A stretch of 64,000 nt of DNA from Ignavibacteriota bacterium (GCA_963801355.1 CAWDEM010000008.1:576001-640000), one strand, 5' to 3'; positions 30,631-60,582 are shown, counted from the stretch's first letter. Notes: a model not told the origin generated them from the letters alone. Made by a program: numbers and translations.

Positions 30631-32703
30631 ATGGGGAATTCAATAATGTCTCATAGATCTTCAATGCATAATATTTCTGCTGGTGGACTTCTTCATTCAT
30701 GGCGCCGCGTGTTCAGCACCTTTGCGGTTTCAACGATAGTACTCTTGGCTTTGAGTCCTCTCTCTTTTTGTTTTGCCGAACCGGCAGGCTCATCCAGCTC
30801 TGCAAAGAAATGGGTTGGAACCTGGAGTACCGCACCACAACTCGTTGAGCCAGGTAATAATCCCCCGGCACCTGGTTTGAGCAATAACACACTTCGACAG
30901 ATAGTGCGCGTTTCACTTGGTGGAGACAGTTTGCGCATGCGATTGTCAAATGAGTTTAGCGCAAGTCCTGTAACATTGCATGCAGTTCACGTTGCTCTCT
31001 CTAAAGGTGGTGGTACAATTGACACGAGTACTGACAAGGTCCTCTATTTTGATGGAAAGACGGAGGTCGCAATTGCGCCAAGGAGTGCGATTACATCGGA
31101 TCCTTTTGAGTTTGTTGTTCAACCACGGAGTGAGGTTGCAATCACGATTTATTTTGGCAACACCTCACCGGATGTAACCGGTCATCCTGGATCAAGAACC
31201 ACATCATACCTGCTTACAGGGGATCAAGTGTCCAAAGTGGATGTTTCCGGCGCTGTCACGACGGATCATTGGTACAACATCAATGCGATTGATGTGCTGG
31301 CACCGTCGACTGCAGCTTGTGTTGCAATTCTTGGCAACTCCATTACCGATGGGCGCGGTTCAACAACAAACATGCAGAATCGATGGACAGATGTGTTTTC
31401 AGAATCTCTTCTGAAGGACTCAAGTACTCGGCAAGTAGGTGTTCTTAATTTGGGCATTGGAGGGAATTGCGTGCTTTCCGGTGGTTTAGGCCCGACTGGA
31501 GTAAGCCGATATGACCGCGACATTCTCAATCAACACGGCGTACGTTGGGTTATCGTTTTTGAAGGGGTAAATGATATTGGTGGGGTCAACTCTGCTGCTT
31601 CTGCAACGATGACTGCCAATAATCTCATTGCTGCATACAGGCAGATGATTGCTAAAGCTCATACCAAAAACATCAGGATATACGGTGGAACCATTCTGCC
31701 CTTCAATGGTAATTCGTACTATAATCAATACAGTGAATTATGCCGAAATGCCGTTAATCAATGGATTCGCACCAAGGGCAATTATGATGGGTTCATTGAT
31801 TTCGATAAGGTGATGCGAAATCCACAGGATACTACGAGACTTGTGTCAACATATCAAAACGACGGTCTGCATCCTGATGCGGCAGGATACAAAACGATGG
31901 GTGAATCCATTGATCTCAATTTGTTTACCGGGGCAGATACGGTTTTCCAGCAAGTGACGGGAATTGAGTCGTTGTGGTTTGAAGCTGAACGTTTTCCGAC
32001 GGTTGGTAGTAGGTTTACTGTCGTAAGTGATGCGGCAGCTTCAAATGGAAAATACATAACTGTTCAGGCTGGTGTACAATCACTTTCCGCAGCTCCAACC
32101 GATAGTGCTGGGTTACTCACCATCCCTTTTACGGTGACCAAGGATTCAACCTACTACGTATTTGGCCGCGTAAACTGTCCAACGTATGATGACGATTCGT
32201 TTTGGGCAAAAGTGGACGATAGTACGTTTGTGAATTGTAATGGATTGAAAACAACCGGATGGGCGTGGATGAACTTGACCAGTTATCCACTGACAAAGGG
32301 TAGTCACACCCTCATTATTGGCTATCGCGAGGATGGAGCCTGTCTTGATAAATTATGCATTACCAATGATATGATTGCTCCAACAGGAATGGGCGAAGCT
32401 GATCCTACATTGGTTGGAGTAAATTCTATAGAGGCAATTGATGGCTATGAATTGGGACAGAATTATCCAAATCCGTTCAATCCTATCTCAACAATACGCT
32501 ACGACATACCTCATGCAGGTATTGTTTCGTTGAATGTTTACGATGTCATTGGCAGAGAGGTGGGGAATCTTGTGAATGAGGTGCAAGAACCGGGAACATA
32601 TTCTGTCTGCTTCGACGCCTCCACATTCTCGAGCGGAATGTATCTGTACAAGCTTGCATCAGGGAAGTTCAGTCAAACGAAAAAGATGATCGTGGTAAGA
32701 TAG
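30631..32703 (+). CDS. SGNH/GDSL esterase with CBM-like domain and T9SS C-terminal domain
   Basis: GNSITDG, GIGGN, EGVND, DGLHP; QNYPNPFNP CTD; visibly AT-richer than flanks; start uncertain. Confidence 0.88.
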   Translation: MGNSIMSHRSSMHNISAGGLLHSWRRVFSTFAVSTIVLLALSPLSFCFAEPAGSSSSAKKWVGTWSTAPQLVEPGNNPPAPGLSNNTLRQIVRVSLGGDSLRMRLSNEFSASPVTLHAVHVALSKGGGTIDTSTDKVLYFDGKTEVAIAPRSAITSDPFEFVVQPRSEVAITIYFGNTSPDVTGHPGSRTTSYLLTGDQVSKVDVSGAVTTDHWYNINAIDVLAPSTAACVAILGNSITDGRGSTTNMQNRWTDVFSESLLKDSSTRQVGVLNLGIGGNCVLSGGLGPTGVSRYDRDILNQHGVRWVIVFEGVNDIGGVNSAASATMTANNLIAAYRQMIAKAHTKNIRIYGGTILPFNGNSYYNQYSELCRNAVNQWIRTKGNYDGFIDFDKVMRNPQDTTRLVSTYQNDGLHPDAAGYKTMGESIDLNLFTGADTVFQQVTGIESLWFEAERFPTVGSRFTVVSDAAASNGKYITVQAGVQSLSAAPTDSAGLLTIPFTVTKDSTYYVFGRVNCPTYDDDSFWAKVDDSTFVNCNGLKTTGWAWMNLTSYPLTKGSHTLIIGYREDGACLDKLCITNDMIAPTGMGEADPTLVGVNSIEAIDGYELGQNYPNPFNPISTIRYDIPHAGIVSLNVYDVIGREVGNLVNEVQEPGTYSVCFDASTFSSGMYLYKLASGKFSQTKKMIVVR

Positions 32704-32790
32704 CCGAACGCTCTCGTCATTGTCAAATGCGTTCGCAGCTCCTGCAATCGGTGTTGAATCGGTGCGGACAACGAGCGACTGCGTAACTTC
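32702..32790. repeat. About 85-bp element-end repeat, copy 1
   Basis: GAACGCTCTCGTCATTGT...CTGCAATCG.TGTTGAATC.GGTGCGGACAACGAGCGACTGCGT matches the copies at 36.46, 36.82 and 38.20 kb. Confidence 0.85.
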
Positions 32791-32826
32791 ACAATGACGA
32801 GTTGTAGTCAGTAGAAGTAGCTGGCA

Positions 32827-33327
32827 CTACTGCTTGTCAGCCTTCGCTGTCACCGGTATGCCAGAATCGTGGCTGTAGATTACTTTCCATTGACCCGCGA
32901 GATTCTTGAAGACCATCGTATAGGCGTGCGGGTTGAATGTAATCTTGTCTCCGGACTTCAGGATGGTGTCATCCTTGCCATCCCAGGCGCAGATGACGAT
33001 GTCCTTAGCGATGAAGATGAAGTCCTGGCGAGTGGTGGTCCATTTGCAGGCGGCTACAGACTTGGCCCAATCAGGGACAAACTTCTTGAAGGTTTGATAG
33101 TCCCACCGTGAACCGTCAGCATTGACCATTCCCCAATCACGCGAATCGGCATAGTAGTCTAACCACCCCGCGTCTACCCTCGCAAGTTTTGATATGATGC
33201 TGTCGCATACCGCCTTGATTTCGCTCTTTGTTTGGTCCTTTTGTTGCTGGGTCAATTGATCGCTTGGTGGCGAAGTGCACCCAAGAAACGAGAGCAGCAG
33301 GGCTCCAACAAAGATTTTCGCTTTCAT
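32827..33327 (-). CDS. NTF2/SnoaL-like lipoprotein
   Basis: Lipobox FLGC; C-terminal YTMVFK...GQWKVIYSHDS. Confidence 0.75.
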   Translation of the reverse strand: MKAKIFVGALLLSFLGCTSPPSDQLTQQQKDQTKSEIKAVCDSIISKLARVDAGWLDYYADSRDWGMVNADGSRWDYQTFKKFVPDWAKSVAACKWTTTRQDFIFIAKDIVICAWDGKDDTILKSGDKITFNPHAYTMVFKNLAGQWKVIYSHDSGIPVTAKADKQ

Positions 33328-33399
33328 CGTGACCTCCGTTTGGTGGACCTGCCTAGATTACCAGCGCGCGACTCCGTTAACAACGTGTCGTCACGAGAA

Positions 33400-33786
33400 T
33401 TAGGTCGAGTCCTTCTTCTTTAAAGTCAAAACAGTGTCCACAACCAAGGCAAGCAGTACTCCGACTGCATTCGCAACAAGGTCCATGCTGTCGTATACGT
33501 TGGTCATGATTCCGAACCCATCGAAGACTTCGAACAGCTCTACCGCCGCAAGGGCAAGACCCGCCGCCCAGAGCCGCTTGTATCTAGACTGGACCGGAAC
33601 GAAAAGTGCATTGAAATATACTGCGAAAGATACCGCTACGTTGGCCGCGTAGGCATCAATAACCGCCTCAAACGGTCCCGAATAATGTCTCTTGAACACA
33701 AGCACAGCCACGCCAAGCATGACAAAAACAATGTTGCGCATGCTGGTCATGCCGTCAGAACTGAAGCCCTGTCCTTTCACCGGCAT
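33400..33786 (-). CDS. Small membrane protein (VanZ-like)
   Basis: Four hydrophobic segments, ELFE...YDSMDLVANAVG. Confidence 0.6.
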   Translation of the reverse strand: MPVKGQGFSSDGMTSMRNIVFVMLGVAVLVFKRHYSGPFEAVIDAYAANVAVSFAVYFNALFVPVQSRYKRLWAAGLALAAVELFEVFDGFGIMTNVYDSMDLVANAVGVLLALVVDTVLTLKKKDST

Positions 33787-33833
33787 GGTACGTCCTCCGA
33801 GAGGCCTGACGCACAGTCACGTGTCCTGGGTCC

Positions 33834-35945
33834 TTATTTCAACAACATCATTCGCTTTGACTCGACATAGTTTCCAGCAGTCAATCGGCAAATGTACACG
33901 CCCGACGAGAGCTTCGCTCCATTGAATTCGATCTGATACTTGCCCGGAGCCTTCTGCCCATCAAGCATTACCGCAACCTCCCTGCCGAGCAGATCGTACA
34001 CAGCCAACCTCACATGACTGGTCGCTGACACCTGAATCCTAATTCCTGTTCTCGGATTGAAGGGATTCGGGTAGTTCTGATGCAAGACCATAGTTCGTGG
34101 AATGCCATTATCATACTCTTGCACCGATGTCATTTCCGAAACCAGCCTTCGCCAGACTCCATTGGAAGATGATCCAGCAAATAGATTTGCGCCCAAAACG
34201 GCAAGGGAGGAGCCACCAGAGCTCACCCAACCCGCGTTGACATGTTTCCAATTTGCGCCGCCATCGGTCGATAGAAACACGCCGCCAGACGTTGCGGCAA
34301 AGAGATTCTCTTCGCTAAGAATAAGAGCAGAGACATTCCGGTATGTCAAGCCGGAATTGTCGGCCGTCCAAGTGGCACCACTGTTGCTAGAACGGAAAAC
34401 ACCACCGGTGGTTCCAGCGAAGAGATTCGTGCCGATGACGGCCAGAGCTTGGACATTTAAGTTCGTCAGGCCCGAATTGACAGCAGTCCAACTGGCACCG
34501 TTATTCGTGGAAAGAAAGACACCATCGTAGTAGGTCCCGGCAAAAAGATACGCCCCGCTGATGGCCAGAGCTTGAACACGCAAGCTCGTCAAACCGGGAT
34601 TGACAGCAGTCCAATTGGTACCGTTGTTTGTGGAAAGAAAGACACCACCGCCGTAGGTTCCAGCAAAGAGATTCGTGCCGCCCTCCCCGTTGAGGCTGAT
34701 GGCAAGAGCTCTGACATCCCGGGTCGTCAAACCCGAACTGGCAGCAGTCCAACTCGTGCCTTGGTTAGTCGACAGAAAAACGCCGCCAGCGTTGGTTCCG
34801 GCCAGGAGATTCGTGGCATTGACGGCAAGAGCCTGGACATTCAAGTCCGTCAAGCCTGAATTGACGGCGGTCCAATTGGTGCCGTCATCCGTAGAAGAAT
34901 AGACGCCACCAACGGCAGTTCCGGCGAAGAGATATGGGCCGATGGCGGCCAGAGCTCCGACAAGCCCGCTCGCCAAACCCGAATTGACTTGTGTCCAACT
35001 GGAACCACCGTTGGTAGTACGAAAGGCGCCACGAAGGAGGGTTCCGACAAAGAGATCCGTGCCGCTGACGGCAAAAGCGTAGACCTTCGCCATGATGGGC
35101 AGATCCGATTGGACCGAAGTCCAAGTACCACCGTTGTTGGTTGAACGGTATACACCATTGCTTGTTCCAACAAAAATATCTGTGCCGCTGACGGCAAAAG
35201 CGATTACTGACGCCGAGATCGGCAGACCCGAATTGGCAGCAGTCCAACTGGTTCCGTCGTTGGTAGAGACGAAGACGCCCATATAGAATAATGTTCCGGC
35301 AAAGAGATTCGTGCCGCTGACGGCGAGAGTCCGTACGTCCGGGTTCGTCAAGCCGGAATTGACAGCAGTCCAAGTACCACCATTGTTTGTAGAACGGAAC
35401 ACGCCACTGTGGGTTCCAGCAAAAATAGTCGTACCCCTGACGGCGAGGGTCCAGACATCCGGGTCCGTCAAGCCGGAATTGACAGCAGTCCAACTAGTGC
35501 CATTGTTCGTGGAAAGGAAGACACCACCACCGTAGGTTCCGGCAAAGAGATACGTGCCGTTGATGGCAAGTGCTTGGACATCTAAGGTCGTCAGGCCTGA
35601 ATTGACGGCAGTCCAACTGGAACCGTTGTTGCTGGAGAGAAAGACGCCACCGTCGGTTCCGGCAAAGAGATTCGTGCCGCTGACGGCAAGCGCCCAGACT
35701 GTCCCACTCCCCAAACCCGAATTGACAGCAGTCCAACTGGCACCGTTGTTGGTCGAGAGATAGACGCCACCATCTGTAGTTCCGGCAAAGAGATTTGCGT
35801 CACTCACGGCAAAACACCGGATGGTTTCCCCTGCGGGCAATGTGGTACGCACCCATTGGGCATCCATTCGTGAGAGACATACAAGCACGCCAAAGAACAG
35901 AAGACTGTGACTCGAAGTTTTCACGTTACACCTCCGCGGAAGCAT
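33834..35945 (-). CDS. Beta-propeller repeat protein with T9SS C-terminal domain
   Basis: About 13 near-identical LFAGT.GGVFLSTNNG.SWTAVNSGL repeats; QNYPNPFNP CTD. Confidence 0.88.
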   Translation of the reverse strand: MLPRRCNVKTSSHSLLFFGVLVCLSRMDAQWVRTTLPAGETIRCFAVSDANLFAGTTDGGVYLSTNNGASWTAVNSGLGSGTVWALAVSGTNLFAGTDGGVFLSSNNGSSWTAVNSGLTTLDVQALAINGTYLFAGTYGGGVFLSTNNGTSWTAVNSGLTDPDVWTLAVRGTTIFAGTHSGVFRSTNNGGTWTAVNSGLTNPDVRTLAVSGTNLFAGTLFYMGVFVSTNDGTSWTAANSGLPISASVIAFAVSGTDIFVGTSNGVYRSTNNGGTWTSVQSDLPIMAKVYAFAVSGTDLFVGTLLRGAFRTTNGGSSWTQVNSGLASGLVGALAAIGPYLFAGTAVGGVYSSTDDGTNWTAVNSGLTDLNVQALAVNATNLLAGTNAGGVFLSTNQGTSWTAASSGLTTRDVRALAISLNGEGGTNLFAGTYGGGVFLSTNNGTNWTAVNPGLTSLRVQALAISGAYLFAGTYYDGVFLSTNNGASWTAVNSGLTNLNVQALAVIGTNLFAGTTGGVFRSSNSGATWTADNSGLTYRNVSALILSEENLFAATSGGVFLSTDGGANWKHVNAGWVSSGGSSLAVLGANLFAGSSSNGVWRRLVSEMTSVQEYDNGIPRTMVLHQNYPNPFNPRTGIRIQVSATSHVRLAVYDLLGREVAVMLDGQKAPGKYQIEFNGAKLSSGVYICRLTAGNYVESKRMMLLK

Positions 35946-36302
35946 CCATCACCGAACTACTTGAGCCGCACCAACAATGAGTCCAGTTCTCAACGTTCTA
36001 GTGCCTCGGGGCCAGAAACGGATAGGGATCACTTGCATTGGCAGACCCCGATGGGGCGAGAGTGCTCGTTAGGGATTCGGGACTGGATGTCTGCCCAGAA
36101 TACCCCCTAAGCACGCTTCCCTCCGAGGACGCACTATCCACGAACAAGATACTCCGGTGTGTGCGAATTGTCAAGGAATGGGAACAGGCTGGATGGATCC
36201 CAAGAATTGGAACCCATGAATCGAAAAAAAGGAGGCGGAGGAAAAACAAATGGCGGATCGAATATCGAAAATCGAGGATCGAGGATGCTGATAGTAGTAT
36301 GA

Positions 36303-36460
36303 CGCATTGCCTCAGAGCTCCTGCGAAGCGGGACCTCGCCTGCTCCGAACTACGCAGAAGTCCGTGGCGCCGAGAGCGACAAAGACTCTGTGCACAAACT
36401 CAAGGTCGTGCTCAAGGAACTCAATGAGTCGCTGGTCTGGCTTGCGATAATTCAGAGAGA
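36303..36460 (+). pseudogene. Four-helix bundle protein (IVP/TIGR02436-like) fragment
   Basis: Hand translation IASELLRSGTSPAPNYAEVRGAESDKDSVHKLKVVLKELNESLVWL; no start, cut at the 85-bp repeat; preceded by heptamer repeats. Confidence 0.75.
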
Positions 36461-36535
36461 GTCGAATGCGCTCGTCATTGTGAGTGGGGGCAAACTGTTA
36501 CTGCAATCGCTGTTGAATCGGGTGCGAACAACGAG
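36457..36535. repeat. About 85-bp element-end repeat, copy 2
   Basis: GAGTCGAATGCGCTCGTCATTGTGAGT...CTGCAATCGCTGTTGAATCGGGTGCGAACAACGAG. Confidence 0.85.
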
Positions 36536-36595
36536 GGAGAATCCGGCTGTGCCGTCCACTCTTCTTTAAGAGATATTCCTGTTCACATCGTGCGA

Positions 36596-36772
36596 CTATT
36601 TCAACTTCTCCACAACCATTAGGAAGTCAACTTGTACCCCGTAGAATAGGAAAAATGGACGGACATTCGGCATCACCGCAACAACATCTCCATCCAGCCC
36701 GTTCAACAACTGTTCAAGCTTTTCCTGCATATTGTCTTTGTTGACTTCCACACGATGCACTCTGTATTTCAT
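36596..36772 (-). CDS. Small hypothetical protein
   Basis: 58 aa MKYRVHRVEV...VDFLMVVEKLK with GAGG RBS, flanked by two end repeats. Confidence 0.6.
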   Translation of the reverse strand: MKYRVHRVEVNKDNMQEKLEQLLNGLDGDVVAVMPNVRPFFLFYGVQVDFLMVVEKLK

Positions 36773-36819
36773 ATCGTCCCTCTGCGTTCTTGTGGTGTCT
36801 TCTGGACTATCACTTTGCC

Positions 36820-36905
36820 ACGCTCTTGTCATTGTGAGTTGGGTTCAACTGCCCCTGCAATTGCTGTTGAATCGGGTGCGGACAAGGAGCAATCGCGTCA
36901 CTTCA
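36820..36905. repeat. About 85-bp element-end repeat, copy 3
   Basis: CGCTCTTGTCATTGTGAGTTGGG...TGCAATTGCTGTTGAATCGGGTGCGGACAAGGAGC. Confidence 0.85.
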
Positions 36906-36984
36906 CAAGAGAACAGTTGGATAAAATGTCCCGCTTTCAGACGATAGACATACACACCACTCGCAAGATTAGAACTATCAAATT
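36898..36984 (-). pseudogene. Remnant of a T9SS C-terminal domain gene
   Basis: Translates FDSSNLASGVYVYRLKAGHFIQ then frameshifts; similar to the end of 38285-39517. Confidence 0.7.
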
Positions 36985-37008
36985 CGGCCTCGTGGGCTCC
37001 GACTCTCT

Positions 37009-37599
37009 TCACTCGTTCCCCAACGTAGACACCCCACGGCTGAGCAACGGGTGAGAACGCGCTAGCCAGACAAGGCCAAGACCAGTCACAATACCGTACA
37101 CCAGAGAATCCAACCCATCACCAGCACGGAAACTAATCCAGGCCAGCCCGGTCAGCATCCATCCTGTCACGCTAAACAAGACCCACAGGCTTGCGAGTTT
37201 CATGTGCCGACGGAAAATCCACCATTGTGGCACACCCAGAAACAACCCAAATGTAACAACGGCCGACCAATATCCCGTCAGGTGCAAGCTCCAATGGAAC
37301 GCAATGTTGGCTTGGATGGTCTGTCCAAGTGGATAACCTGCCGCAAAGCCGACGGCGCTTGCTACAAGGAACCGTACAGGGAGCACACCAACGGTTCGAA
37401 CGATGGGCCATTGCAGGCCACCTATAACTGCACCCCAGACCAACCCCTTACCAATACGAGCCCATATCAATGGCTCGCCCCCCAACAGTCTGGCTGTCTC
37501 ACTGCCCAGTTCATAACCCAGGAACATCCCAGCCGAGGAGAGCAGAACGCCGATAAGCCCTGGTTTAATGTTAGTCCAAGTAAACAGTCGCGTTGTCAT
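37009..37599 (-). CDS. Hypothetical membrane protein
   Basis: Gly/Trp-rich multi-TM protein with internal repeat GGLQWPIVR / GVPQWWIFR. Confidence 0.7.
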   Translation of the reverse strand: MTTRLFTWTNIKPGLIGVLLSSAGMFLGYELGSETARLLGGEPLIWARIGKGLVWGAVIGGLQWPIVRTVGVLPVRFLVASAVGFAAGYPLGQTIQANIAFHWSLHLTGYWSAVVTFGLFLGVPQWWIFRRHMKLASLWVLFSVTGWMLTGLAWISFRAGDGLDSLVYGIVTGLGLVWLARSHPLLSRGVSTLGNE

Positions 37600-37679
37600 T
37601 ATTTTCGATTCTCCAAGGCGGGTTCAATGCAACGCACCGACTCCTACACCGAGTCAGAGCGCGCAATGTGTGTGGCGGA

Positions 37680-37708
37680 AATGTACCTCCCCCCTTCTCC
37701 AAAGTCAA
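37680..37708 (-). promoter_or_regulatory. Sigma-70-type promoter facing cargo (Pc-like), copy 1
   Basis: TTGACT-N17-TACATT on the minus strand. Confidence 0.65.
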
Positions 37709-37970
37709 CTTCAATAAGGAATCGCAAGGATTTTCGGCGGTCTATGAGAACACCTACCGATGGAGATGAGCCACGACCAAGCATCACCGTCAGCAGTTGA
37801 CCAAGCACCTATCGGGAATGTGTTGCCCCTCACTTCCCGACCCCTCCAGACGATTCCCCACTGATTCCAGTTGTAGCTCGACTGGAGGGCTGATACCTTG
37901 AGAAAGGCAGGAAGAATAACTGCTGACAGAATTGTTGACAAACAGGCTTGGGAACGGGTATGAGGATTGG

Positions 37971-38003
37971 GAAAAAGAACAACCCCGACGTGATGCCGGG
38001 GTT
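37971..38003 (-). terminator. Intrinsic terminator downstream of tRNA 3' copy
   Basis: AACCCCG/CGGGGTT stem followed by GTTCTTTTTC on the minus strand. Confidence 0.6.
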
Positions 38004-38066
38004 GAGGGAAAAGCTGGAAACTCAATCGACAATAGTCGATAGTCCATCGACTATTGTCCATCGTTT

Positions 38067-38200
38067 GTGCACCCACCAGGACTCGAATCCCGTCCCGACC
38101 GAAGTTAGCTAGGCGAAGCCGCAGCTAACTTCGTTGTCGGGACGCGGATCCTCGTCCCGCGCTGCGCGCGGGGCGGGACCTGGAACCCACTGATTAAGAG
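38067..38200 (-). repeat. tRNA-Lys 3' fragment (att remnant) interrupted by 91-bp insertion
   Basis: GTGCACCCACCAGGACTCGAA [38088-38178] CCTGGAACCCACTGATTAAGAG identical to the tRNA 3' half. Confidence 0.92.
38088..38178. mobile_element. 91-bp palindromic (REP/MITE-like) insertion, copy 1
   Basis: TCCCGTCCCG...CGGGGCGGGA termini, two internal hairpins; 90/91 identical to 52227-52317. Confidence 0.8.
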
Positions 38201-38291
38201 AGTCGAACGCTCTCGTCATTGTGAGTTGGGGCAAACTGCTTCTGCAATCGCTGTTGAATCGGGTGCGGACAACGAGCGACTGCGTTACTTC
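38198..38291. repeat. About 85-bp element-end repeat, copy 4 (abuts att remnant)
   Basis: Starts right after the tRNA fragment and ends at the stop codon of the T9SS gene. Confidence 0.85.
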
Positions 38292-39517
38292 AACAGAATG
38301 AGTTTTTTCGATTGAACGAAATCCCCCGCTGTCAGACGGTAGACGTACGCACCACTCGCAAGATTCGAACCATCGAACTTGACCTCGTGAACGCCAGCAT
38401 CTCTCCTCTCATTCACCAACGGGGATACCTCACGACCAAGCATGTCATGGAGACTCAGGCTGACATGCGATGTCTTGGACAAATCGAACTTGATGGTCGT
38501 TGTCGGATTGAATGGGTTTGGATAATTTTGTGAAAGCGAAGACTCTCCGGGCATTTCGTCGGTCTGCCCTGCATTGACAGACGTTGTTCCCCCGTTTGTG
38601 GTTCTGACGATTCTGCCGTTTTCAGCAACAGCGGTCCCGTTATTTGCATCGGTAAAGGAGATGTCAATCAAATGCTTTGTTGTTCCACTTGTTTGTTGTG
38701 TCCAGGTTATACCTCCGTCTGTAGTTCTGCGGATTCTGCCGTTCTCACCGACGGCAGTGCCGTTATTTGCATCGGTGAAGGAGACACTATATAGCTTGTT
38801 TGTTGCTCCACTTGTCTGTTGCGTCCAGGTTATTCCTCTGTCCGTGGTTCTGAGGATTATGCCGTTGTCACCAACAACAGTTCCGGTGTTTACATCGGTG
38901 AAGGAGACATCATACAAATCGTTTGCCGTTCCGCTTGATTGTGAAGTCCAGGTTGTTCCTCCGTCCGTGGTTCTCAGAATCGTACCCTCATAACCGACAG
39001 CCGTCCCGTTGTTCAAGTCAATAAAAGAGACTCCCTCCAGATATCGTGTTGTTCCGCTTGATTGTGAAGTCCATGTCGTTCCGCCGTTTGTGGTTCCGAC
39101 AATTCTGCCGTTTTCACCGACAGCCGTCCCATTGTCTGCATCGATGAAGGAGACGTCATACAGGTCGTTTGTTGTTCCACCCGATTGTCGAGTCCAGGTT
39201 GTTCCTCCGTTTGTGGTTCGGAGGATTCTGCCGTTCTCACCGACAGCCGTTCCGATGTTTACATCTCTAAAGGATACAGCCAGCAAAAAGTCTGATGTTC
39301 CGCTTGTCTGCTGTACCCAGGTTGTCCCCCCGTTTGTCGTCCTGAGGATTCTGCCGTTTTCACCGACAGCTGTTCCGTTGTTTACATCTGTAAAGGAGAC
39401 ACCGCCCAAATCTTCTGTTGTGCCGCTTGTTTGCTGATACCACTGCCCAAATGACGGGCATACGGAGAACACGAGCGGAACCACGACGAGGAATACACGC
39501 TTGAAGTTCCTTTTCAT
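38285..39517 (-). CDS. YCF48-repeat protein with T9SS C-terminal domain
   Basis: Seven 41-aa repeats VSF.D.N.GTAVGENGRI.RTT.GG.TW; QNYPNPFNP CTD. Confidence 0.9.
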   Translation of the reverse strand: MKRNFKRVFLVVVPLVFSVCPSFGQWYQQTSGTTEDLGGVSFTDVNNGTAVGENGRILRTTNGGTTWVQQTSGTSDFLLAVSFRDVNIGTAVGENGRILRTTNGGTTWTRQSGGTTNDLYDVSFIDADNGTAVGENGRIVGTTNGGTTWTSQSSGTTRYLEGVSFIDLNNGTAVGYEGTILRTTDGGTTWTSQSSGTANDLYDVSFTDVNTGTVVGDNGIILRTTDRGITWTQQTSGATNKLYSVSFTDANNGTAVGENGRIRRTTDGGITWTQQTSGTTKHLIDISFTDANNGTAVAENGRIVRTTNGGTTSVNAGQTDEMPGESSLSQNYPNPFNPTTTIKFDLSKTSHVSLSLHDMLGREVSPLVNERRDAGVHEVKFDGSNLASGAYVYRLTAGDFVQSKKLILLK

Positions 39518-39738
39518 GAGATGTCCCTTTCACCTATATACAGAGAAAAGCGACGCACGAGGGGACGTCGGCAGGTCGTCGGGTACAACGCAGGACGGAA
39601 CATTCGGCGGCACGCTGAGTCCCACTTTTGCTTGTTTCGGAAACCAAACGACTGGTTGTAGGTTGAGCATTGTAGTCCATCGTAGCTATGCCCGTGCCTT
39701 CGCGAGCACAGGCCTCACAACCAATGAACTACACTTGC

Positions 39739-40125
39739 TCAGAGAGCTTGCACACCAGGAGGACTTCGCTCGTGAACAAGCGAAAGAATACAGTTCGAAG
39801 GGAGTGAAACAACGTGGGGAATGTGAAAAGCACATAAACAGGTTCGAATGTCTAACGCAGGCTTGCAGGGGCACGCGGTCTCAACGGAAATCTTGCGCAC
39901 TCGGATGCGCTGGCAGAGGAAACTCTTCTTGCGTGGAGTGATCTGCTTCTGTTTGTGCGGGGGGCTCTTTTGCCTGGCGTGACTGTGGGGCTTCGATTCA
40001 CCGGCCAGCGTTACCGTGTGTGGGGGGGCTATCCGCGTTTGAGCATACAGACTCACACGCGGTGCAGAAAAGCCCAATGAAAACAGAAACACCAAAGGTA
40101 TGGAGAAGACTCTCTTCATGACCAA
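39739..40125 (-). CDS. Hypothetical protein (signal-peptide-like N-terminus; possibly degenerate)
   Basis: GAGG RBS upstream, MKRVFSIPLVFLFSLGF leader; remainder unrecognised. Confidence 0.35.
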   Translation of the reverse strand: MVMKRVFSIPLVFLFSLGFSAPRVSLYAQTRIAPPHTVTLAGESKPHSHARQKSPPHKQKQITPRKKSFLCQRIRVRKISVETACPCKPALDIRTCLCAFHIPHVVSLPSNCILSLVHERSPPGVQAL

Positions 40126-40384
40126 AATACTATCCTCGTACCTTTAGGAAGCGGCCACCACTAATGGATATCAACCCCATGTCATCCCCTGCTACAACAC
40201 CAACCGTCTCGAGGACCTCGCTGACGATACTTCAGCGCGAGCTGAACACAATGAACTTGAATCTTCTTGAGACCGGTGCCTGACGAAAGATGTCGGCCGG
40301 TCGTCGGGTTAGACGGTATCTCATAAACACTCGGCGACTCGCTGACTCCTACATCGAGTCGGAGCTCGTAATGTGTGTGACGGA

Positions 40385-40413
40385 AATGTACTCCCCCCCC
40401 TTTCCAAAGTCAA
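40385..40413 (-). promoter_or_regulatory. Sigma-70-type promoter facing cargo (Pc-like), copy 2
   Basis: TTGACT-N17-TACATT, divergent from the integrase. Confidence 0.65.
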
Positions 40414-40630
40414 ATGCACTCAAGAATCCCAAGGGTTTTCGGGGGTCTTTAGGAAGTGAGACCCTCGGAACTGCGTCAAGTCGGCTATCGGACAAAAGTA
40501 CCCCTCGGGACTGTGTTGCCCCTCACTCCCCGACCCCTTCCAGACATTGCCCCACTGATTCCAGTTGTGGCTCGACTGGATAGCCGATATGTTGTTCTCA
40601 GTGAATCGAGAACAATCAAGGGTACATCCG

Positions 40631-41662
40631 ATGTTGAACCACACCAAACTGTCTCTCTTCAAGCGTTCGAATGGAATATACTACCTGGGGTATGTCGAGG
40701 GGAATCGCAGACGGTGGAAGACAACCTCTTGCACCACCAAGTCGGATGCACTGCAGTTCCTGCGAACCTTCGAAGGAACCAAGAGAGAGATGGAACGCAC
40801 TCCCCTGCTCTCCGAACTCTTCACGCGGTTCGAGTCTACACGCGGTAACTCCATCCGTCCGTCAACGATGGACAATTACCGTCTTGCGGTCAACCGATTC
40901 AAAGAGGTCTGCGGAGACAAAGTCATTGACCAATACACCGTTTCAGATATCGAGACATTCAAGAACGCTCAGATTAGCCAGAAGGTGTCGAAGATATCCG
41001 TGAACATCTGGTTGCGTGGTGTCAAATCAGTTCTCGGTTTCGCAGTCAAGCACGAGTGGTTGACCAAGAACCCCGTGCAACGGTCACTTGAGTTTCCGAT
41101 TCCTCAACAGTCCCCAACCTATGTCACCAAAGAGGATTTCCAGAAACTCCTCGGTAAGGTACACGAATCCGTCCTCCGCGACCTCTTCCTTTTCGCCGCA
41201 CTCAGTGGTCTGCGTCTCTCAGAGATACTACACCTCAAGTGGAGTGCGGTGGACTTCGAGAAGAGACAGTTCACAGTATCCAACAGTGAGACCTTCACTA
41301 CGAAAACGGGAAGAGAACGGACGGTACCGATGCACGAGGAGGTGTACAAGGTTCTGTCACTGCGAAGGGGTAACAGTACGGAAGACGGTCTGGTGTTCTG
41401 CAAGAAAGGTGGATACCGCCTCGAACGGAACTATGTCTCGAAGAAGTTCAAGGGGTATGTTCGTGACGCGGAACTATCGGAGAAACTGCACTTCCACAGT
41501 TTGCGTCACAGTTGTGCGAGCTGGCTTGTTGATGCGGGCGTATCTCTGTATGTGGTGCAGAACATCCTGGGACACTCCAATATCAGTACGACCCAAATCT
41601 ACTCACACCTCTCACAGAACACACTGCACGAGAGTGTGAATCGGGTTGCACTCTGCGTTTGA
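40631..41662 (+). CDS. Tyrosine recombinase/integrase
   Basis: SGLRLSE (R), TKTG (K), HSLRH, LGH, TTQIY; short N-terminal arm-binding-like segment; no IntI-type insertion seen. Confidence 0.95.
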   Translation: MLNHTKLSLFKRSNGIYYLGYVEGNRRRWKTTSCTTKSDALQFLRTFEGTKREMERTPLLSELFTRFESTRGNSIRPSTMDNYRLAVNRFKEVCGDKVIDQYTVSDIETFKNAQISQKVSKISVNIWLRGVKSVLGFAVKHEWLTKNPVQRSLEFPIPQQSPTYVTKEDFQKLLGKVHESVLRDLFLFAALSGLRLSEILHLKWSAVDFEKRQFTVSNSETFTTKTGRERTVPMHEEVYKVLSLRRGNSTEDGLVFCKKGGYRLERNYVSKKFKGYVRDAELSEKLHFHSLRHSCASWLVDAGVSLYVVQNILGHSNISTTQIYSHLSQNTLHESVNRVALCV

Positions 41663-42622
41663 GCCTATTAGGGTAGGATTGGGAGGTATCGTTGTTGTTG
41701 GTGGGATTGGTGGTAAGGTGCCTCGTTCTGTTCGCTCCGTGTCTTCGACACTTCGCTCACCCCGACTGAGAAGCGTCGGGAATCACTCTCCGCTATTCTG
41801 AAGGATGAGGAAGTAGATTCAGAACGCTCTTTGTTCTGAGTCCGAAGGACAAATGCCTCAAGGAAGTCTTACCTCGCAAACAACGCTCGGTTGACCTCAC
41901 GAAGAACGTTCGGTCAATCTCTCTTCTTCCTTCTGTATGGAAATCACACTAAGTGAGGTAGTGAATACCGCGCTTTGTGCGGTGTGCGAACGTCTTCTGT
42001 TCGCACGATGTGTTCCTTACAAGACATAGTACGACTTGATGTCGTTTAGAAATCTGCGGTTGGTATGGTTAGCACTTTCGTTCTTACTAATGGACGCCTC
42101 GGACTCTCGTACCGAGGAACGTGTGTCTCTTCAGATTTGCCACACTTTGGTTTAGGACTTTTTCAAGGTCAATAGTGTGCGGACACAAGGACAGACTCCA
42201 CCAAGCGAGTTGCGACAATGGAGTGGTCGGTTGCGACAACTGGTTCCGTTCAACTTGTGTTCATCTCTTCAGTTCCTTTCCAAAACAAATCCCTCACTAC
42301 GAGTGTGTCTTCGCGGGCACTCATAATGAGGGAGTCAAACAAACCCTTCAGAGGGTTGTGTCGTACATTCATCTGTGCGAAGACATCTTCTCGTCTCTAC
42401 CTATACATATCATCGAGAAATCCCAAACGCTCACTTTTTCTGCACGACCGAGATAATATCTTCAATACGCCTATTGTGACACGGTCACAATCTGACCGCC
42501 TTAGGGGTGTCAAGGGTCGGATAAGTGGTCGGCTATCCACTTCCAGCAGTAAGCCTTGTCAACAGTGTCCGCTCGCCACTCTTGCCTTGCATCGCCTTGT
42601 CCGCTTCACTGGTGACTGTGAA

Positions 42623-42922
42623 TCACTGGACGATTGCCGAGTGCATCCAGACCCTCGCTTGTCCGTCCCACGGAATCGGAGATGGACTCACACTTCCGTC
42701 CACCGCCTCCGTTCGCCCCTTGACCGTGGAGAGGTGTGCCGCAATTCTGGGGTGTCCGAGGATGGTCTGAATACGAGAACCTCTCATATCGCAATCCCGT
42801 TCGATTGCGGAGATTGGTGTCAGAAATCCACGGACGCTTGAGGTTCCTACCGCATTTTGACAGACAAGCAGTGCATCGGGAACACCACCCCGCGTGTCAA
42901 GGTGCACTCCCGTGGTGTTCAT
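42623..42922 (-). CDS. Hypothetical protein, possibly the 5' part of a decayed gene
   Basis: Strong GAGGAGG RBS; downstream minus-strand frames look coding but contain stops. Confidence 0.35.
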   Translation of the reverse strand: MNTTGVHLDTRGGVPDALLVCQNAVGTSSVRGFLTPISAIERDCDMRGSRIQTILGHPRIAAHLSTVKGRTEAVDGSVSPSPIPWDGQARVWMHSAIVQ

Positions 42923-43103
42923 AATGCACCCTCCTCAACGCTTCGCCGACTGCCCCCATCCAGTTTGTCGTGAATGAAAAAACTGAACCTTCGTGCGATT
43001 GCTGAGGGAAGGTCTCTCGTATCGAGGTCGCCAGAATTGCCGCTGACGCATCTCCTCGGTTGCGAGATACTTATGGGAAACACACTCACCGTGAGGAACT
43101 GAA

Positions 43104-43418
43104 ATGCCGCAAGGAACGCAAGCCACATATGAGGAAATGCCATACGACCGACTCACACTCGTGGGGAAGGAATTGGGGGACTACAACTCGAAGGAATATA
43201 TCTATCGCGGTCAGTTGGGTGTGTACCGTCTGCGAGTGGGAGAATCCGTCACGGACGAAGGGAAGGTGTTCTACATCTACCAGAACAACAAGTTCTGGCT
43301 GAATCTGTATCCGTCAAACACCAAGAAGGTCTTCGTAGGAAGGGACGATGACGACTACTACATCTTCCGATTCGAGGGGAAGTATGTCTCGGTGTTCAAG
43401 CGGAAGTACGATATTTGA
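43104..43418 (+). CDS. Hypothetical protein
   Basis: GAGGA RBS, 104 aa, Tyr/Lys-rich beta-type composition. Confidence 0.65.
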   Translation: MPQGTQATYEEMPYDRLTLVGKELGDYNSKEYIYRGQLGVYRLRVGESVTDEGKVFYIYQNNKFWLNLYPSNTKKVFVGRDDDDYYIFRFEGKYVSVFKRKYDI

Positions 43419-43539
43419 CCGCTGACGATGGGGTGTCGAACTCAAAACAGAGTCCCGAAATTGTAGACAAGGCTGTTGACAAACTGGACGCAAAAGTAGG
43501 TCGGGATGTGGGGTGTGCGAGGGATGATAGCGAAGGGTC

Positions 43540-43573
43540 AAAAACACCGAACCCCTTCACACGGAAGGGGTTC
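43540..43573 (-). terminator. Intrinsic terminator downstream of tRNA 3' copy
   Basis: GAACCCCTTC-ACACG-GAAGGGGTTC 10-bp stem then GGTGTTTTT. Confidence 0.65.
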
Positions 43574-43578
43574 TGAGA

Positions 43579-43623
43579 GTGCACCCACCAGGACTCGAAC
43601 CTGGAACCCACTGATTAAGAGTC
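43579..43623 (-). repeat. tRNA-Lys 3' fragment (att remnant), uninterrupted
   Basis: 45 bp identical to 60509-60553. Confidence 0.95.
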
Positions 43624-43947
43624 CGGCAATGATCAGCCAAAACGTGCAAAATAGGGCACTTCTCGGCAGTTGGGTTGTCATAACTTGTCATAAACTGCCA
43701 TCGATTAGCATAAAGTCACTACACTTTCACTACACTCGTTGGGGACGGGGGCCGCCTTCGTCCATGAATATCTCAAGCTGTATTTGACATTGTCAAAAGA
43801 GCATTGTCATTGACGCTCACCGCACTCATCTGGGGCAGGCTTTAACCATGGTGGGATCCAGAATCGACCGCTCGCGGGGGAACAACCTGCGCCCGTTTGA
43901 TTCTGAGACTGCCCTGCGCTATCTTGTTGCATCAGAGAGGTTCACAC

Positions 43948-44253
43948 GTGACGCCAGCAATTCAAGTCAGCCGCAAACAAGTAGCCGAATTCTGTGCACG
44001 GCACAGGATCCGCCGGCTTGCGCTCTTTGGCTCCGTTCTGCGCGCGGATTTCCGCCCCGAGAGCGACGTCGATGTGCTTGTTGAGTTCGAACAGGGAGCT
44101 GCTGTTGGTTTTTTCGGGCTTGCCCGGCTTGAGCGTGAGCTATCCTCTCTTCTCGGAGGCCGGAGGGTCGACCTTCGCACACCGCAGGACCTCAGCAGAT
44201 ACTTCAGAGACTCCGTTGTCGATCAGTCCTACGTGATTCATGGACCAAGCTGA
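43948..44253 (+). CDS. MNT minimal nucleotidyltransferase antitoxin
   Basis: [22 protein letters not shown] (GSX10DXD); GTG start. Confidence 0.9.
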
Positions 44254-44593
44254 CCTGATCCGGCTCCGCCACATGCGAGACGCAGCGGCCGAGGCTCTCC
44301 AGTTTGCAGCGGGGAAGACGCGTGCCGATCTTGACCACGATCGCATGCTCATCCTGGCTATCCTGAAGGATCTCGAGATCATCGGAGAGGCGGCAGGCAG
44401 AGTAAGTCCCTCGGTCAAACAGGACAACCTGGCAGTTCCCTGGGAGGAGATCGTTGGGATGCGAAATCGACTCATCCACGGTTATTTCGATGTCAATCTG
44501 GACGTTGTGTGGGAAACAATCTCGCATGATCTTCCGCACCTCCTCATCGACATCGATACAATCCTGAGTCCACCGGAACAGTCTCAACAGTGA
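44240..44593 (+). CDS. HEPN (DUF86, HepT-like) ribonuclease toxin
   Basis: [22 protein letters not shown] (RX4HXY). Confidence 0.9.
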
Positions 44594-44658
44594 AGCCAAT
44601 GAGGTCCGGGGCATAGTTCGAGTTCGGACTTGGACAGTTGGGGCATCCTCCAATTGCG

Positions 44659-47526
44659 CTATTTCAAAAGAAGAAGCCGCCGCGTCTGTACAAAGTCCCC
44701 TGCCTGCATCCGGTAGAAGTACACTCCGCTTGCAAGCCCTGAACCGTCGAATTTCACTTCATGGTTCCCCGGTGCCATCTTCTCGTTCACCAGCACCGCC
44801 ACCTCTCGGCCCAGCAGATCATACACAACGAGTTTCACATTGCCGGCAGCTGGCAACTGATATCTGACGACTGTCGAAGGATTGAACGGGTTCGGGAAAT
44901 TTTGGCTAAGCCCATATACTTTGGGCACATCAGGGTTTTCGGTGACGCTCCCTGTCAGAGGAACGGCCAGAGCATTCTCGCACGCGCCAATATCCGGGTT
45001 TGAGCCCGCAGGGTTCGGACGCGCTGAGCCGTAGAAGCACGTGTTGGACGTTCGGTGCCACACGCCGCCAATCTTCAGAGAATCTATTCCGGCGCCAATG
45101 CAGGGGCTCCGTACGGAAAGGCGATAGGTGCTGTCTACGAACAGTGGTTCCTGTACAATATTTCCGGTGCCTGCGTATCCCCCTGCAACATCGCAATATT
45201 GAATGACCGGCGCCGCCCCGGTTGCATTGATCTCGGGCCCGGTCGTAGCAGTATCTCCCCAGAGAATATTGTTGAACGCAACAACGTTTGCAGCGTTAAC
45301 GATATCCAGCCCACCGCCAGTTGTTGCCTTGTTCCCCACAAAAGTATTGTTCGCGATCATCTGCTCCGTTCCCACATCAGGAGCATTCTGAACCTGCAGC
45401 CCTCCGCCAGATGTAGTCGACTGGTTTTCCGTTATGATGTTGTTTTCGATCTGGAATGAAGATCTGATCGCTTGAATCCCCCCTCCTCTCGCATCGTTTG
45501 AGCCCGCCGCAGTGTTTGCAGATATCAGATTCCCTGTAACCGTCGCCACTGTGTGGAACAGATCGATGGCACCTCCCCAGTTCTCCACGTTCTGACCTTG
45601 AACGTGGTTCCCGACGAACTGATTATGTGTGAGCCACTTGCGCCCAGGTCCCACGGCCTCTCTGTCGTCAATGCATATGCCTCCCCCTATGGCCCAACCA
45701 TTGAGCACTGCGGTCGCAATGTTTCCTTCGAAGGTGTTCTCGGTGAACACGACGGGTCCCGTCGAGTAGCAGAAAACCCCTGCACCAGTTGCAGCACCAT
45801 CTCCTCCTGAAGGTATTCCGTTCGCAATGTTGTTCCGGAAGATGTTCCCCTGAACAAATCCTTCGGGGAACGGCGCAGAGGTAGTCAATCCATACAGATT
45901 CAACCCACCTCCAATCGCAATGGAGACTCCAATGGCAGTATCCCTTTCAATCACATTGCCAACAACCCGAAAGGACATGCCGTTGACATCAACTCCCCCA
46001 CCCGTTCCCCACGTATTGCCCGAAGTTCCCAGCACATAGTTGTCTGTGATTCGGTTATCTTCGAGCACGAGCCACAATGGCGTAGCGCCAAAGCTAACTG
46101 TTCCCACTCCTCCGCCGCCGGATGCCCCGCCAATTACTCTGTTGAGGACGATGTTGTTGCTTACGAGCTTGGCTCCCGCAGAATCGCAAAACACCCCTCC
46201 GCCCTCGCGCCACGTTGTACCATCCGGACCAAAATATGATGTTCCCGTTCCACCGGTAATTGTGAAACCGCACAGGACCGACGTTGTGTCTTCATTGTCG
46301 GCAAAGCAGACCACCGATCCCCCATTCGGATCTGTCGCGTGGCTCCCGTCGATAATTGTTTTCGCAATGTGCGATGTGTCGCCTGTTGTGAGATACGTGC
46401 TGGCGACAACGATGCTCTTCCCTTTGAATCGTATGTTCTCGTAGTAGGTGCCGTCAGAAACGAGCACAGTGTCGCCATTGTGGGCGGAGTCAATCGCGGC
46501 CTGGATTGTCGCATAGTTCTGTGGAACGAGACGACGGCTTCCGGCGACTGGCGACGTTGCATGGCCTATCCGGATGAGATATGTGCTTGCAGGTGACCTC
46601 CAACCATCGTACCAGAAATGGATCGCGTCTCCCCGCAAGAGTACGGCATCCACCATCGCAGCGGTGGCATCCCACCCTCCGGGGGTAGTGTTAAGTACAG
46701 GATTCGCAGGGTGTTTAACCCACGGGGAATTCCCGTCTAGGGAGGTGGCCAAACCAGACCTGGAGTTACCGCTCGAGTACCACATGTAGTACGAGTTTTT
46801 AATCAAGACGACTTTCGGGCCTGCAACTCCTCCTGCATCCCATTCCCCTGGTTTGCCAGCATCGAGCATCGGGTTGTTTGCTGCATCCCGCGTCCAGTGG
46901 ATTCCATCTGGAGATGTCGCAAGTCCGATCTTCGTAGCACTCAGGTCCGCATTGTAGCCATAGTACCACATCCTGTAGCCCGTCGGGCTGATCCGCATGA
47001 CGGTCCCAACGTCAGGGCCGCCAACTTCCCATGCCGCAGTTCCTTGTCCGAAGACGGGGTTGCCTGGATACTTTGTCCATTGAATGCCATCCGGTGAAGT
47101 AGCGTAGCCAAGATCTGCGGTATCTCCTTTCCATGAGCCATACCACATCTTGTAGGATCCATTCTCACGCAGGACTATGTGGGAAGAAATCGAGGCATCG
47201 TCCCAGCTGCCAGGGGTTCGTGACATGACCGGAGATGAATACGAGGTCCAATTCACTCCATCGGGTGATTTAGCGAACCCGACTTGCCAGGGGTGGCCGT
47301 AGTTTTCAAGGCTGGGCGTCGCCGCAAACCACATTTCATACCTCGAAGAGTCTTCATTGTAGATCACACATGCATTGAAAACATGTTTGTTCCACGTGCC
47401 CTCGCTTCCACCGGACAAGACCGGGTTTCGGGAATCCTTCGTTATCGTGAATTGCCCGAATGCGCTGCCATTTCCGAAGAACAGAATGGCCACAAGTGAA
47501 ATGCTGCAAACCATTGCGTTTCTCAT
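44659..47526 (-). CDS. Secreted protein: five-bladed glycosidase-like propeller + parallel beta-helix + T9SS domain
   Basis: Five NPV...WD...YxMWY...G.A.S.DG..W repeats; VPQNYATIQAAID..GDTVLV..GTYYENI; QNFPNPFNP. Confidence 0.82.
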   Translation of the reverse strand: MRNAMVCSISLVAILFFGNGSAFGQFTITKDSRNPVLSGGSEGTWNKHVFNACVIYNEDSSRYEMWFAATPSLENYGHPWQVGFAKSPDGVNWTSYSSPVMSRTPGSWDDASISSHIVLRENGSYKMWYGSWKGDTADLGYATSPDGIQWTKYPGNPVFGQGTAAWEVGGPDVGTVMRISPTGYRMWYYGYNADLSATKIGLATSPDGIHWTRDAANNPMLDAGKPGEWDAGGVAGPKVVLIKNSYYMWYSSGNSRSGLATSLDGNSPWVKHPANPVLNTTPGGWDATAAMVDAVLLRGDAIHFWYDGWRSPASTYLIRIGHATSPVAGSRRLVPQNYATIQAAIDSAHNGDTVLVSDGTYYENIRFKGKSIVVASTYLTTGDTSHIAKTIIDGSHATDPNGGSVVCFADNEDTTSVLCGFTITGGTGTSYFGPDGTTWREGGGVFCDSAGAKLVSNNIVLNRVIGGASGGGGVGTVSFGATPLWLVLEDNRITDNYVLGTSGNTWGTGGGVDVNGMSFRVVGNVIERDTAIGVSIAIGGGLNLYGLTTSAPFPEGFVQGNIFRNNIANGIPSGGDGAATGAGVFCYSTGPVVFTENTFEGNIATAVLNGWAIGGGICIDDREAVGPGRKWLTHNQFVGNHVQGQNVENWGGAIDLFHTVATVTGNLISANTAAGSNDARGGGIQAIRSSFQIENNIITENQSTTSGGGLQVQNAPDVGTEQMIANNTFVGNKATTGGGLDIVNAANVVAFNNILWGDTATTGPEINATGAAPVIQYCDVAGGYAGTGNIVQEPLFVDSTYRLSVRSPCIGAGIDSLKIGGVWHRTSNTCFYGSARPNPAGSNPDIGACENALAVPLTGSVTENPDVPKVYGLSQNFPNPFNPSTVVRYQLPAAGNVKLVVYDLLGREVAVLVNEKMAPGNHEVKFDGSGLASGVYFYRMQAGDFVQTRRLLLLK

Positions 47527-47592
47527 GGGTCCCTCCATTGTTGGTTGTTCGCCGGAATATAGAAAGGCTGGAGGGGGATGTGGTAGGAATGC

Positions 47593-47620
47593 TTAGACAA
47601 AGAATGCGAGAATCTGGACA
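47593..47620 (-). promoter_or_regulatory. Candidate HTCS/AraC site: direct repeat at 21-bp spacing
   Basis: TTAGACA...CTGGACA, upstream of a TATATT -10-like box. Confidence 0.4.
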
Positions 47621-47669
47621 TCAGACAGGAATACGCTCGTTCGTCCCGAGAGAGGCCATAGTAGGCTCT

Positions 47670-52205: not shown

Positions 52206-52344
52206 GTGCACCCACCAGGACTCGAATCCCGTCCCGACCGAAGTTAGCTAGGCGAAGCCGCAGCTAACTTCGGTGTCGGGACGCGGATCCTCGTCCCGCG
52301 CTGCGCGCGGGGCGGGACCTGGAACCCACTGATTAAGAGTCAGT
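52206..52344 (-). repeat. tRNA-Lys 3' fragment (att remnant) interrupted by 91-bp insertion
   Basis: GTGCACCCACCAGGACTCGAA [52227-52317] CCTGGAACCCACTGATTAAGAGTCAGT. Confidence 0.92.
52227..52317. mobile_element. 91-bp palindromic (REP/MITE-like) insertion, copy 2
   Basis: Same sequence (1 mismatch) and same position as 38088-38178. Confidence 0.8.
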
Positions 52345-60435: not shown

Positions 60436-60509
60436 CGGCTGTAACTCATTGTCTTATCCACATTTGATTGACTATAGTCCATGGACAATCGACTATTGTC
60501 AATCGGTCG

Positions 60510-60582
60510 TGCACCCACCAGGACTCGAACCTGGAACCCACTGATTAAGAGTCAGTTGCTCTACCAATTGAGCCATGGGTGC
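60510..60582 (-). tRNA. tRNA-Lys(CTT)
   Basis: GCACCCA TGGCTCAATTGGTAGAGCA ACTGA CTCTTAA TCAGT GGGTT CCAGG TTCGAGT CCTGG TGGGTGC A folds as a cloverleaf; CCA not encoded. Confidence 0.97.

Follow-up and report, generated by a model that had tools for sequence, protein, structure and literature searches.

What kind of element occupies positions 36,820 to 41,662 of a 64,000-nucleotide stretch of Ignavibacteriota bacterium DNA (GCA_963801355.1 CAWDEM010000008.1:576001-640000), here called the window and numbered from its first letter, where a tyrosine integrase stands beside a repeated promoter and a series of cargo genes? The original prediction was an integron-like platform, in which a non-IntI integrase and a constant, Pc-like promoter serve to capture swappable genes. 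By the features given in PMC8618304, the locus is not an integron. Its sequence is best explained if it belongs to a series of small integrative units arrayed in tandem at a tRNA-Lys(CTT) gene. It represents a compact form of tRNA-island accretion, with a promoter module common to the units, and not a new kind of integron. The genome of the window (G000; 4.8 Mb) is near-complete.

The candidate target is an intact tRNA gene, and copies of its 3' part serve as putative attachment (att) sites at the ends of the units:
60509..60582, minus strand: intact tRNA-Lys(CTT), the integration target (ARAGORN; Rfam RF00005).
43579..43623, minus strand: att copy that closes the integrase-bearing unit on the right; over 45 bp it is identical to the 3' part of the tRNA, and it ends just beyond the anticodon loop.
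38067..38200, minus strand: att copy with its T-loop broken by a ~90-bp palindromic insert; junction of an integrase-less unit (left) and the integrase-bearing unit (right).
52206..52344, minus strand: att copy that carries the same palindromic insert and is 99% identical to 38064-38200; here two more integrase-less islands meet, whose arms are of another type.
Target and displaced fragments lie in direct repeat, as in tRNA-targeting integrative elements. The palindromic insert itself (38088-38177 and 52227-52316) is 99% identical between its two window copies and has kin at C8:1515713 and C4:522571 of G000.

Beside the att cores lies a 95-bp element, E, which is present in four copies within 32696-38292 and nowhere else in the genome; every copy in the window is found at the 3' end of a cargo block. 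The arms at the two ends of the units are as follows:
38195..38292: arm E4, attP-derived, abutting the att core and ending in TGCGGACAA.
36820..36908: arm E3; the core end is missing, and a 58-aa open reading frame (ORF) adjoins with its start.
36456..36543: arm E2; a degenerate overlap of 7 bp (putative secondary att site) links it to foreign DNA.
32696..32795: arm E1, left end of the array, with a degenerate overlap across the stop codon of a GDSL gene.
43446..43573: right arm of the integrase-bearing unit; it holds TGTAGACAA/TGTTGACAA in tandem, plus one terminator on the minus strand.
37916..38058: right arm of the integrase-less unit; TGTTGACAA lies at 37933, and the minus strand has two terminators.

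Searched with a profile, the collected loci yielded 74 matches to E, 56 of them distinct. Among the latter, 24 stand directly behind the 3' part of tRNA-Lys, nine behind the start of the 58-aa gene, and five, including E1 and E2, border on foreign DNA, with a degenerate anticodon-loop copy at the joint; twelve lack the left part, five carry a hairpin insert at the core, and one lies at a contig end. Because of this junction pattern, the crossover is placed at E's left edge, within the anticodon loop, which is among the crossover subsites listed in PMC4383910. The right edge ends in TGCGGACAA, which resembles the repeats beside the opposite att end. E thus appears to be an att arm, and TGCGGACAA and the opposite-end repeats are read as putative arm-binding sites. 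Conservation is 0.76-0.92 at positions -7 to -1 of the right edge, 0.56-0.88 at +1 to +7 and 0.28-0.52 beyond, a decrease in two steps. E was also considered as an attC site, given its GTT-like end box and the overlap with the stops of cargo genes for type IX secretion system (T9SS) proteins. This candidate was rejected, as the folds are inconsistent among copies, the bases past the edge misfit IntI insertion, and the family attC profile misses E.

The recombinase is as follows:
40631..41662, plus strand: tyrosine integrase, 343 aa; R195, K225, H289, R292, H315 and Y324 present, no IntI insertion.
The catalytic residues are kept in 68 homologues. In the structural model (mean pLDDT 89.9), strands are formed by residues 8-11, 17-23 and 26-31 and a helix by residues 37-46. 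Three strands and a helix constitute the arm-binding domain, described as mostly present in phage integrases and those from ICEs (integrative and conjugative elements; PMC8138268). The best Foldseek match of the model is lambda Int, and the protein is predicted to be a lambda-type integrase with an N-terminal arm-binding domain; on the predicted structure, it combines this domain with the catalytic residues, as do tyrosine integrases of tRNA-targeting elements. That it is not an IntI, as originally predicted, is confirmed by its score of 81 bits on TIGR02249 against a cut-off of 265, which no match in G000 exceeds, and by the lack of the ~31+11-residue insertion that two IntI proteins from relatives have.

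Upstream of the integrase position lies a divergent promoter module, P, found twice in the window:
37639..37900: P1, with leftward -35/-10 boxes (37708>37680) and, as the rightward candidate, TTGTAG-17-TACCTT (37871-37899), which no integrase follows.
40344..40594: P2, with leftward -35/-10 boxes (40413>40385) and, as the rightward candidate, TTGTGG-17-TATGTT (40565-40593), which the integrase follows.
These are the two diverged platform copies on which the original prediction was built, and they are real: 37639-37895 and 40344-40589 are 75% identical over 260 columns (pairwise alignment, expect value 2e-42) and are the only full copies in the genome. Both do carry TTGACT-N17-TACATT on the minus strand (37708>37680 and 40413>40385), pointing away from the integrase position. 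In a comparison of 31 copies, one of which was dropped to leave 30 distinct ones, the -35 box was located by pattern and the -10 box was not; TAnnnT occurs 17 bp past the leftward -35 box in 26/30, as TACATT in 18, and the rightward TAnnnT is retained in 18 of 19 distinct right ends of P. These counts support the reading of P as a divergent promoter pair, the outward member of which, upstream of the integrase position, probably drives the cargo, an arrangement of the integron type. The promoter is not peculiar to the element. Its exact motif occurs 10 times in the genome, with ~0.3 expected, and eight of these occurrences are elsewhere, before unrelated genes. The promoter part of P, with identical -35/-10 boxes, is also present at 2303-2390 of the window, before an unrelated gene far from the array. 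Over the rightward promoter, P holds CCCACTGATT followed by CAGTTG (37855-37876 and 40550-40570), which resembles a tRNA anticodon arm without its loop and might possibly be an operator for the integrase.

The units are built in a constant order, namely att core, arm E, cargo (transcribed toward E), a leader palindrome (M), P, then the integrase, a non-coding segment and a 104-aa gene where present, a second arm, a terminator and the next att core. Twelve of 20 att-to-att intervals begin with E (650-5512 bp in relatives). P or M is found in 10 of these 12 E-type units, a near-full integrase in three and none near-full in nine. In the window, the integrase-bearing unit is adjoined in tandem by an integrase-less one, as in accretion arrays of cis-mobilizable elements (CIMEs). 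In G018, a related genome, two integrase-bearing units stand in tandem, with integrases 74-76% identical and different cargo.

Did the integrase-less units arise again and again, or once? Integrase-bearing and integrase-less forms diverge just past the rightward -10 box, and 6/19 distinct right ends of P pass straight into the arm, with an att copy 176-183 nt further on, as the left copy of the window does. Six integrase-less units with this common promoter-to-arm junction and att spacing come from different genomes and metagenome contigs and differ in cargo. One common junction with differing cargo argues for an integrase-less lineage rather than repeated decay, and suggests that it is non-autonomous and has spread. 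Plain decay, by which successive independent islands would have lost their integrases and left small units as immobile scars with a merely inherited promoter, is the strongest rival, although an unlikely one. It could account for the twelve E copies without a left part, for integrase fragments and for one internally deleted unit of G018; similar fragment stacks exist at tRNA-Pro and tRNA-Arg genes of the genome, and a three-step path of this sort has been described for CIMEs (PMC5704250). It fits poorly, however, with the single junction and spacing of the six units, and with arms and a -10 box that are conserved while the spacers drift.

The explanation that we favor, and consider probable although well short of certain, is that the integrase moves whole units at the anticodon loop and that homologous exchange changes their cargo. 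A lambda-type integrase would bind the arms through TGYDGACAA-like repeats and recombine at a 7-bp overlap in the anticodon loop, so that units would be excised as circles. Insertion of circles at the tRNA gene or at an att copy would result in stacking, and integrase-less units would be moved by the integrase of a neighbor or in trans. Cargo would be replaced not by site-specific capture but by homologous or microhomology exchange between conserved flanks, the leader on one side and the T9SS tail with E on the other.

The cargo of the window comprises the following:
38285..39517, minus strand: 410-aa YCF48/BNR repeat protein with a T9SS tail; stop 12 nt from the E edge.
39739..40125, minus strand: 128-aa ORF of no family.
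37009..37599, minus strand: 196-aa hydrophobic ORF; four metagenome loci have homologues of it in E units, and in one of them the promoter joint is the same too.
36596..36772, minus strand: 58-aa ORF between two E copies, here and in several relatives.
32827..35945, minus strand: older cargo, i.e., a 703-aa repeat protein with a T9SS tail, a 128-aa ORF and a 166-aa lipoprotein-like ORF.
All seven ORFs that we read as genes in 32827-40125 lie on the minus strand, so that the co-orientation claimed for 32.8-40.1 kb holds; a broken remnant is on the plus strand. This remnant (36249-36460) is cut by E2, and a similar gene is located just downstream of tRNA-Lys in G034 and G024; we presume its product to be four-helix-bundle-like.

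How cargo changes can be judged at both of its ends. The sequence adjacent to 53 anchored E copies (three others were dropped for want of an anchor) falls into 25 classes. Five T9SS cargo genes have their stop 12 nt from the E edge, with tails 55-82% alike and middles unrelated in 9/10 pairs, which indicates that those swaps fell inside the gene. At the promoter end, the common sequence past the -10 box stops at 0-17 nt in 6/30 copies, 38-44 nt in 5/30, 55-58 nt in 5/30 and 75-100 nt in 14/30, a few of the short values stemming from insertions inside the leader. The best fit for these patterns appears to be an exchange, by homology or microhomology, among units of the stack.

The leader palindrome M raises the possibility of another mode of capture. 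It is imperfect and is present twice in the window:
40278..40366, plus strand: M2, imperfect palindrome in the cargo leader, folding on the plus strand, opposite the cargo mRNA.
39553..39640, plus strand: M1, second leader palindrome, before the 410-aa cargo gene.
M has 10 copies in G000, all at the 5' side of an outward gene, and nine of them are at most 31 kb from a tRNA gene, as is 38% of the genome. It often precedes genes for secreted proteins, and two genome copies then have a second, related hairpin. Among the 33 full-length copies of the 47 collected, M folds better opposite the mRNA in 29 as DNA and in 32 as RNA. Its alignment has 14 consensus pairs opposite the mRNA and none on the other strand, 91% of cells pair, a value reached by 0/500 shuffles (a control blind to kinship), and there are 158 G-T cells as against 49 A-C cells. 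Such a strand bias would be expected of a single-stranded DNA site or of an antisense RNA. Rfam gave no meaningful match for M, E or P.

M might thus be a single-stranded DNA recombination site, an attC analogue that places new genes behind the promoter, a proposal that we hold to be quite unlikely. The strand-biased folding, the position of all copies before outward genes and their proximity to tRNA genes are in its favor. Nevertheless, no fixed breakpoint is found at the end of M, several units have no M or only part of it, and M shows no asymmetric spacer or extrahelical base of the attC kind. In addition, the copies are related, so that the counts are not independent, and the integrase is of the arm-binding, double-strand type.

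A further proposal involves the region that follows the integrase:
41741..42460, minus strand: conserved non-coding segment, candidate structured RNA or cis element, known from two full sequences only.
43104..43418, plus strand: 104-aa conserved, beta-rich protein of no known family, core gene of complete units.
Positions 41861-42286 are 89% identical to G018 without codon bias (mismatches 17/15/14 by codon position, as compared with 170/57/51 for the integrase). Substitutions in 41741-42460 break fewer predicted minus-strand pairs than do shuffles in 4/6 settings (p 0.002-0.014; 0.08 and 0.50 in the others), in 0/6 settings on the plus strand and in 0/4 controls; the test compares two sequences only, and recent exchange of the segment could yield the same identity. 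The segment occurs in 2/277 genomes of the order, G000 included, and has no meaningful Rfam match, while 41700-43450 has no match in phage or plasmid collections. It occupies the slot where a relative has a polymerase-like gene, and in G012 (locus L151) the same slot holds a non-coding segment that has one ~40-nt motif in common with it, inverted. Two candidate origins were rejected: a decayed polymerase gene, as tblastn and tblastx gave no convincing likeness to the 455-aa protein of the relative, and an integrase pseudogene at 42623-42922, as the block has no PHROG match and no codon bias. For the 104-aa protein, no usable Atlas match was obtained, and its best structural Z of 7.6, among common beta-barrels, is uninformative. 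We give little credence to the wider proposal of an integron-independent gene-capture system, in which non-autonomous att cassettes would be served by the lambda-type integrase, M, as a strand-specific DNA hairpin, would set the place at which a strong promoter is joined to new genes for secreted proteins, and helper-dependent members would have a structured RNA or origin of 700 nt instead of the polymerase gene.

The original prediction itself placed a single capture site about 40 bp past the -10 box. Between the left and right platform copies, homology does run out after ~41-44 nt; this stop is peculiar to the left copy, as the right copy and most homologues continue through the leader hairpin to ~90-100 nt. 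A constant promoter with variable cargo was recovered among homologues (30 P copies, 25 far-boundary classes, the tandem units of G018), but the junctions are scattered over 0-100 nt past the -10 box, which was the outcome named beforehand as fatal to a stationary platform. The recombination site would not be behind the promoter; it appears to be the anticodon-loop att on the far side of the cargo, and the platform travels with each unit. No single attI insertion point behind Pc was found in the 30 promoter copies. A profile of 38 attC sites from the integrons of four relatives found none in the window and one remnant elsewhere in G000, and those integron loci contain no E, M or P save for one weak 21-nt match to M. 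A hand-written attC pattern found nothing even in true integrons and was discarded without weight. A stationary integrase-promoter platform with one capture site is therefore very improbable, already largely refuted by the scattered junctions: the divergent promoter pair by the integrase, the variable cargo and its polarity speak for it, but only 5/30 promoter copies stop near 40 nt, the junction of the window is common by descent with locus L091, where it was inherited together with the 196-aa cargo, each unit has its own promoter, the attC profile is blank, and E, M and P are nearly absent from integron loci.

Several points weigh against movement of whole units by the integrase combined with homologous exchange of cargo. 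The arm motif has 8 matches against 0.7 expected, but it was built from these very sequences, so that the excess is partly circular, and the sharp right edge of E would equally be expected from a capture site. The strand bias of M and the ~700-nt conserved non-coding segment after the integrase find no explanation in it. Cargo other than T9SS genes has no conserved 3' flank beyond E, so that homologous exchange does not cover all swaps. No excisionase or replication gene was identified among the unit ORFs scanned, and the polymerase-like protein of G078 has no match in G000. No relaxase or type IV secretion system (T4SS) was recognised among these ORFs either, in scans not aimed at them. Finally, no excision, circle, empty site or transfer was seen in four of 13 sequencing runs; the runs contained at most 9% of the sequence words, and the four gave only contigs of related organisms, which bear on neither excision nor expression. 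Movement of the units as circles is thus inferred from sequence comparison.

E was found in 9/68 genomes of the family, one match being weak, in 5/401 genomes of the class, two of them weak matches outside the family, and in 37 metagenome stretches. IntI is present in 20/68 family genomes and in 0/8 with a strong E match, from which no conclusion is drawn, as kin are not independent. True integrons, with more than 20 long (~160 bp) attC each and repeated cassettes, are found at L129 and L131 (G074 and G075). For the E pattern, a post-integrase pattern and the family of the 104-aa protein, viral contigs gave no match. Elements at other tRNA genes use the same M-P module. In particular, a tRNA-Gln element of G078 has an integrase 52% identical, a 455-aa protein, the 104-aa gene, and cargo with M, P and the arm. 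The best Atlas match of the 455-aa protein is named a family A polymerase palm protein (0.97; an automatic name without Pfam support). In related elements, genes that resemble family A polymerases and belong to no Pfam family are convergent with the integrase at L150 8776-10143 (G078) and L153 148-1044 (G001).

Other arrays adjoin or resemble this one. Two more islands that lack an integrase, at 43624-52205 and 52345-60508, have another arm repeat, CACTACA. In the first, a nucleotidyltransferase-HepT pair (Pfam) occurs together with a hybrid sensor and a protein that has a T9SS tail; the second is alike by sequence. In G031, an integrase only 27% identical stands beside a CACTACA-type arm. Elsewhere in G000, tRNA-fragment stacks were observed for tRNA-Pro(TGG), tRNA-Pro(CGG) and tRNA-Arg(CCT) (C4:442721-527443; C4:1655163 with C8 fragments; C8:799889-836603).

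How does the array compare with known systems? Our literature search, which subscription papers mostly escaped, found no paper on this element family. CIMEs and accretion as described for elements related to Streptococcus ICESt1 (PMC5704250) are alike in their tandem arrangement at the 3' end of a target gene, in integrase-less members with attL and attR and in chimeric att sites between neighbors. CIMEs are described as decayed ICEs or integrative and mobilizable elements (IMEs), whereas here the integrase-less units are of 0.65-2.7 kb, with a common junction across genomes and their own conserved promoter module; no conjugation genes were recognised among the ORFs scanned, no search for relaxase or T4SS having been made. 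The ssrA islands of Dehalococcoides (PMC3146451) are also tandem and marked by direct repeats; their integration module is conserved while the cargo is discordant, each repeat has a conserved motif at its side, and some members are without the module. They are of ~12 kb, with a multi-gene module, and use the T-loop of tmRNA; here, by contrast, one- or two-gene units use a tRNA anticodon loop and a single tyrosine integrase. Tycheposons (10.1101/2020.12.28.424599) are alike by description, with a tyrosine integrase at tRNA genes, partial tRNA copies, newer elements pushing older ones inward, an optional replication module and cargo, but they belong to another host phylum, and the present elements are smaller and have a common cargo promoter and leader. 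The Islander tDNA islands with an anticodon-centred attP (PMC4383910) are alike in that the displaced tRNA 3' fragment stops at the anticodon loop and in that they form tandem arrays; tandem calls there need an integrase in each member, so that the small units described here would be unlisted. Integrons (PMC8618304) are similar in their polar single-gene array, tyrosine recombinase and divergent promoter pair. In contrast, no IntI, attI or attC is found here, the promoter moves with the unit, and the att sites are probably double-stranded, tRNA-derived and flanked by arms.

The general pattern of tRNA-island stacking is already published, which limits the surprise. Nevertheless, the locus brings together, within a single unit of 5.5 kb, the target, both arms and an integrase that is the candidate cognate one, which most integrase-less arrays do not. 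If the small units still moved, an integron-like array would be buildable from ordinary lambda-type att sites, and their movement would explain the variation of genes for secreted proteins (T9SS, lipoprotein) in these bacteria.

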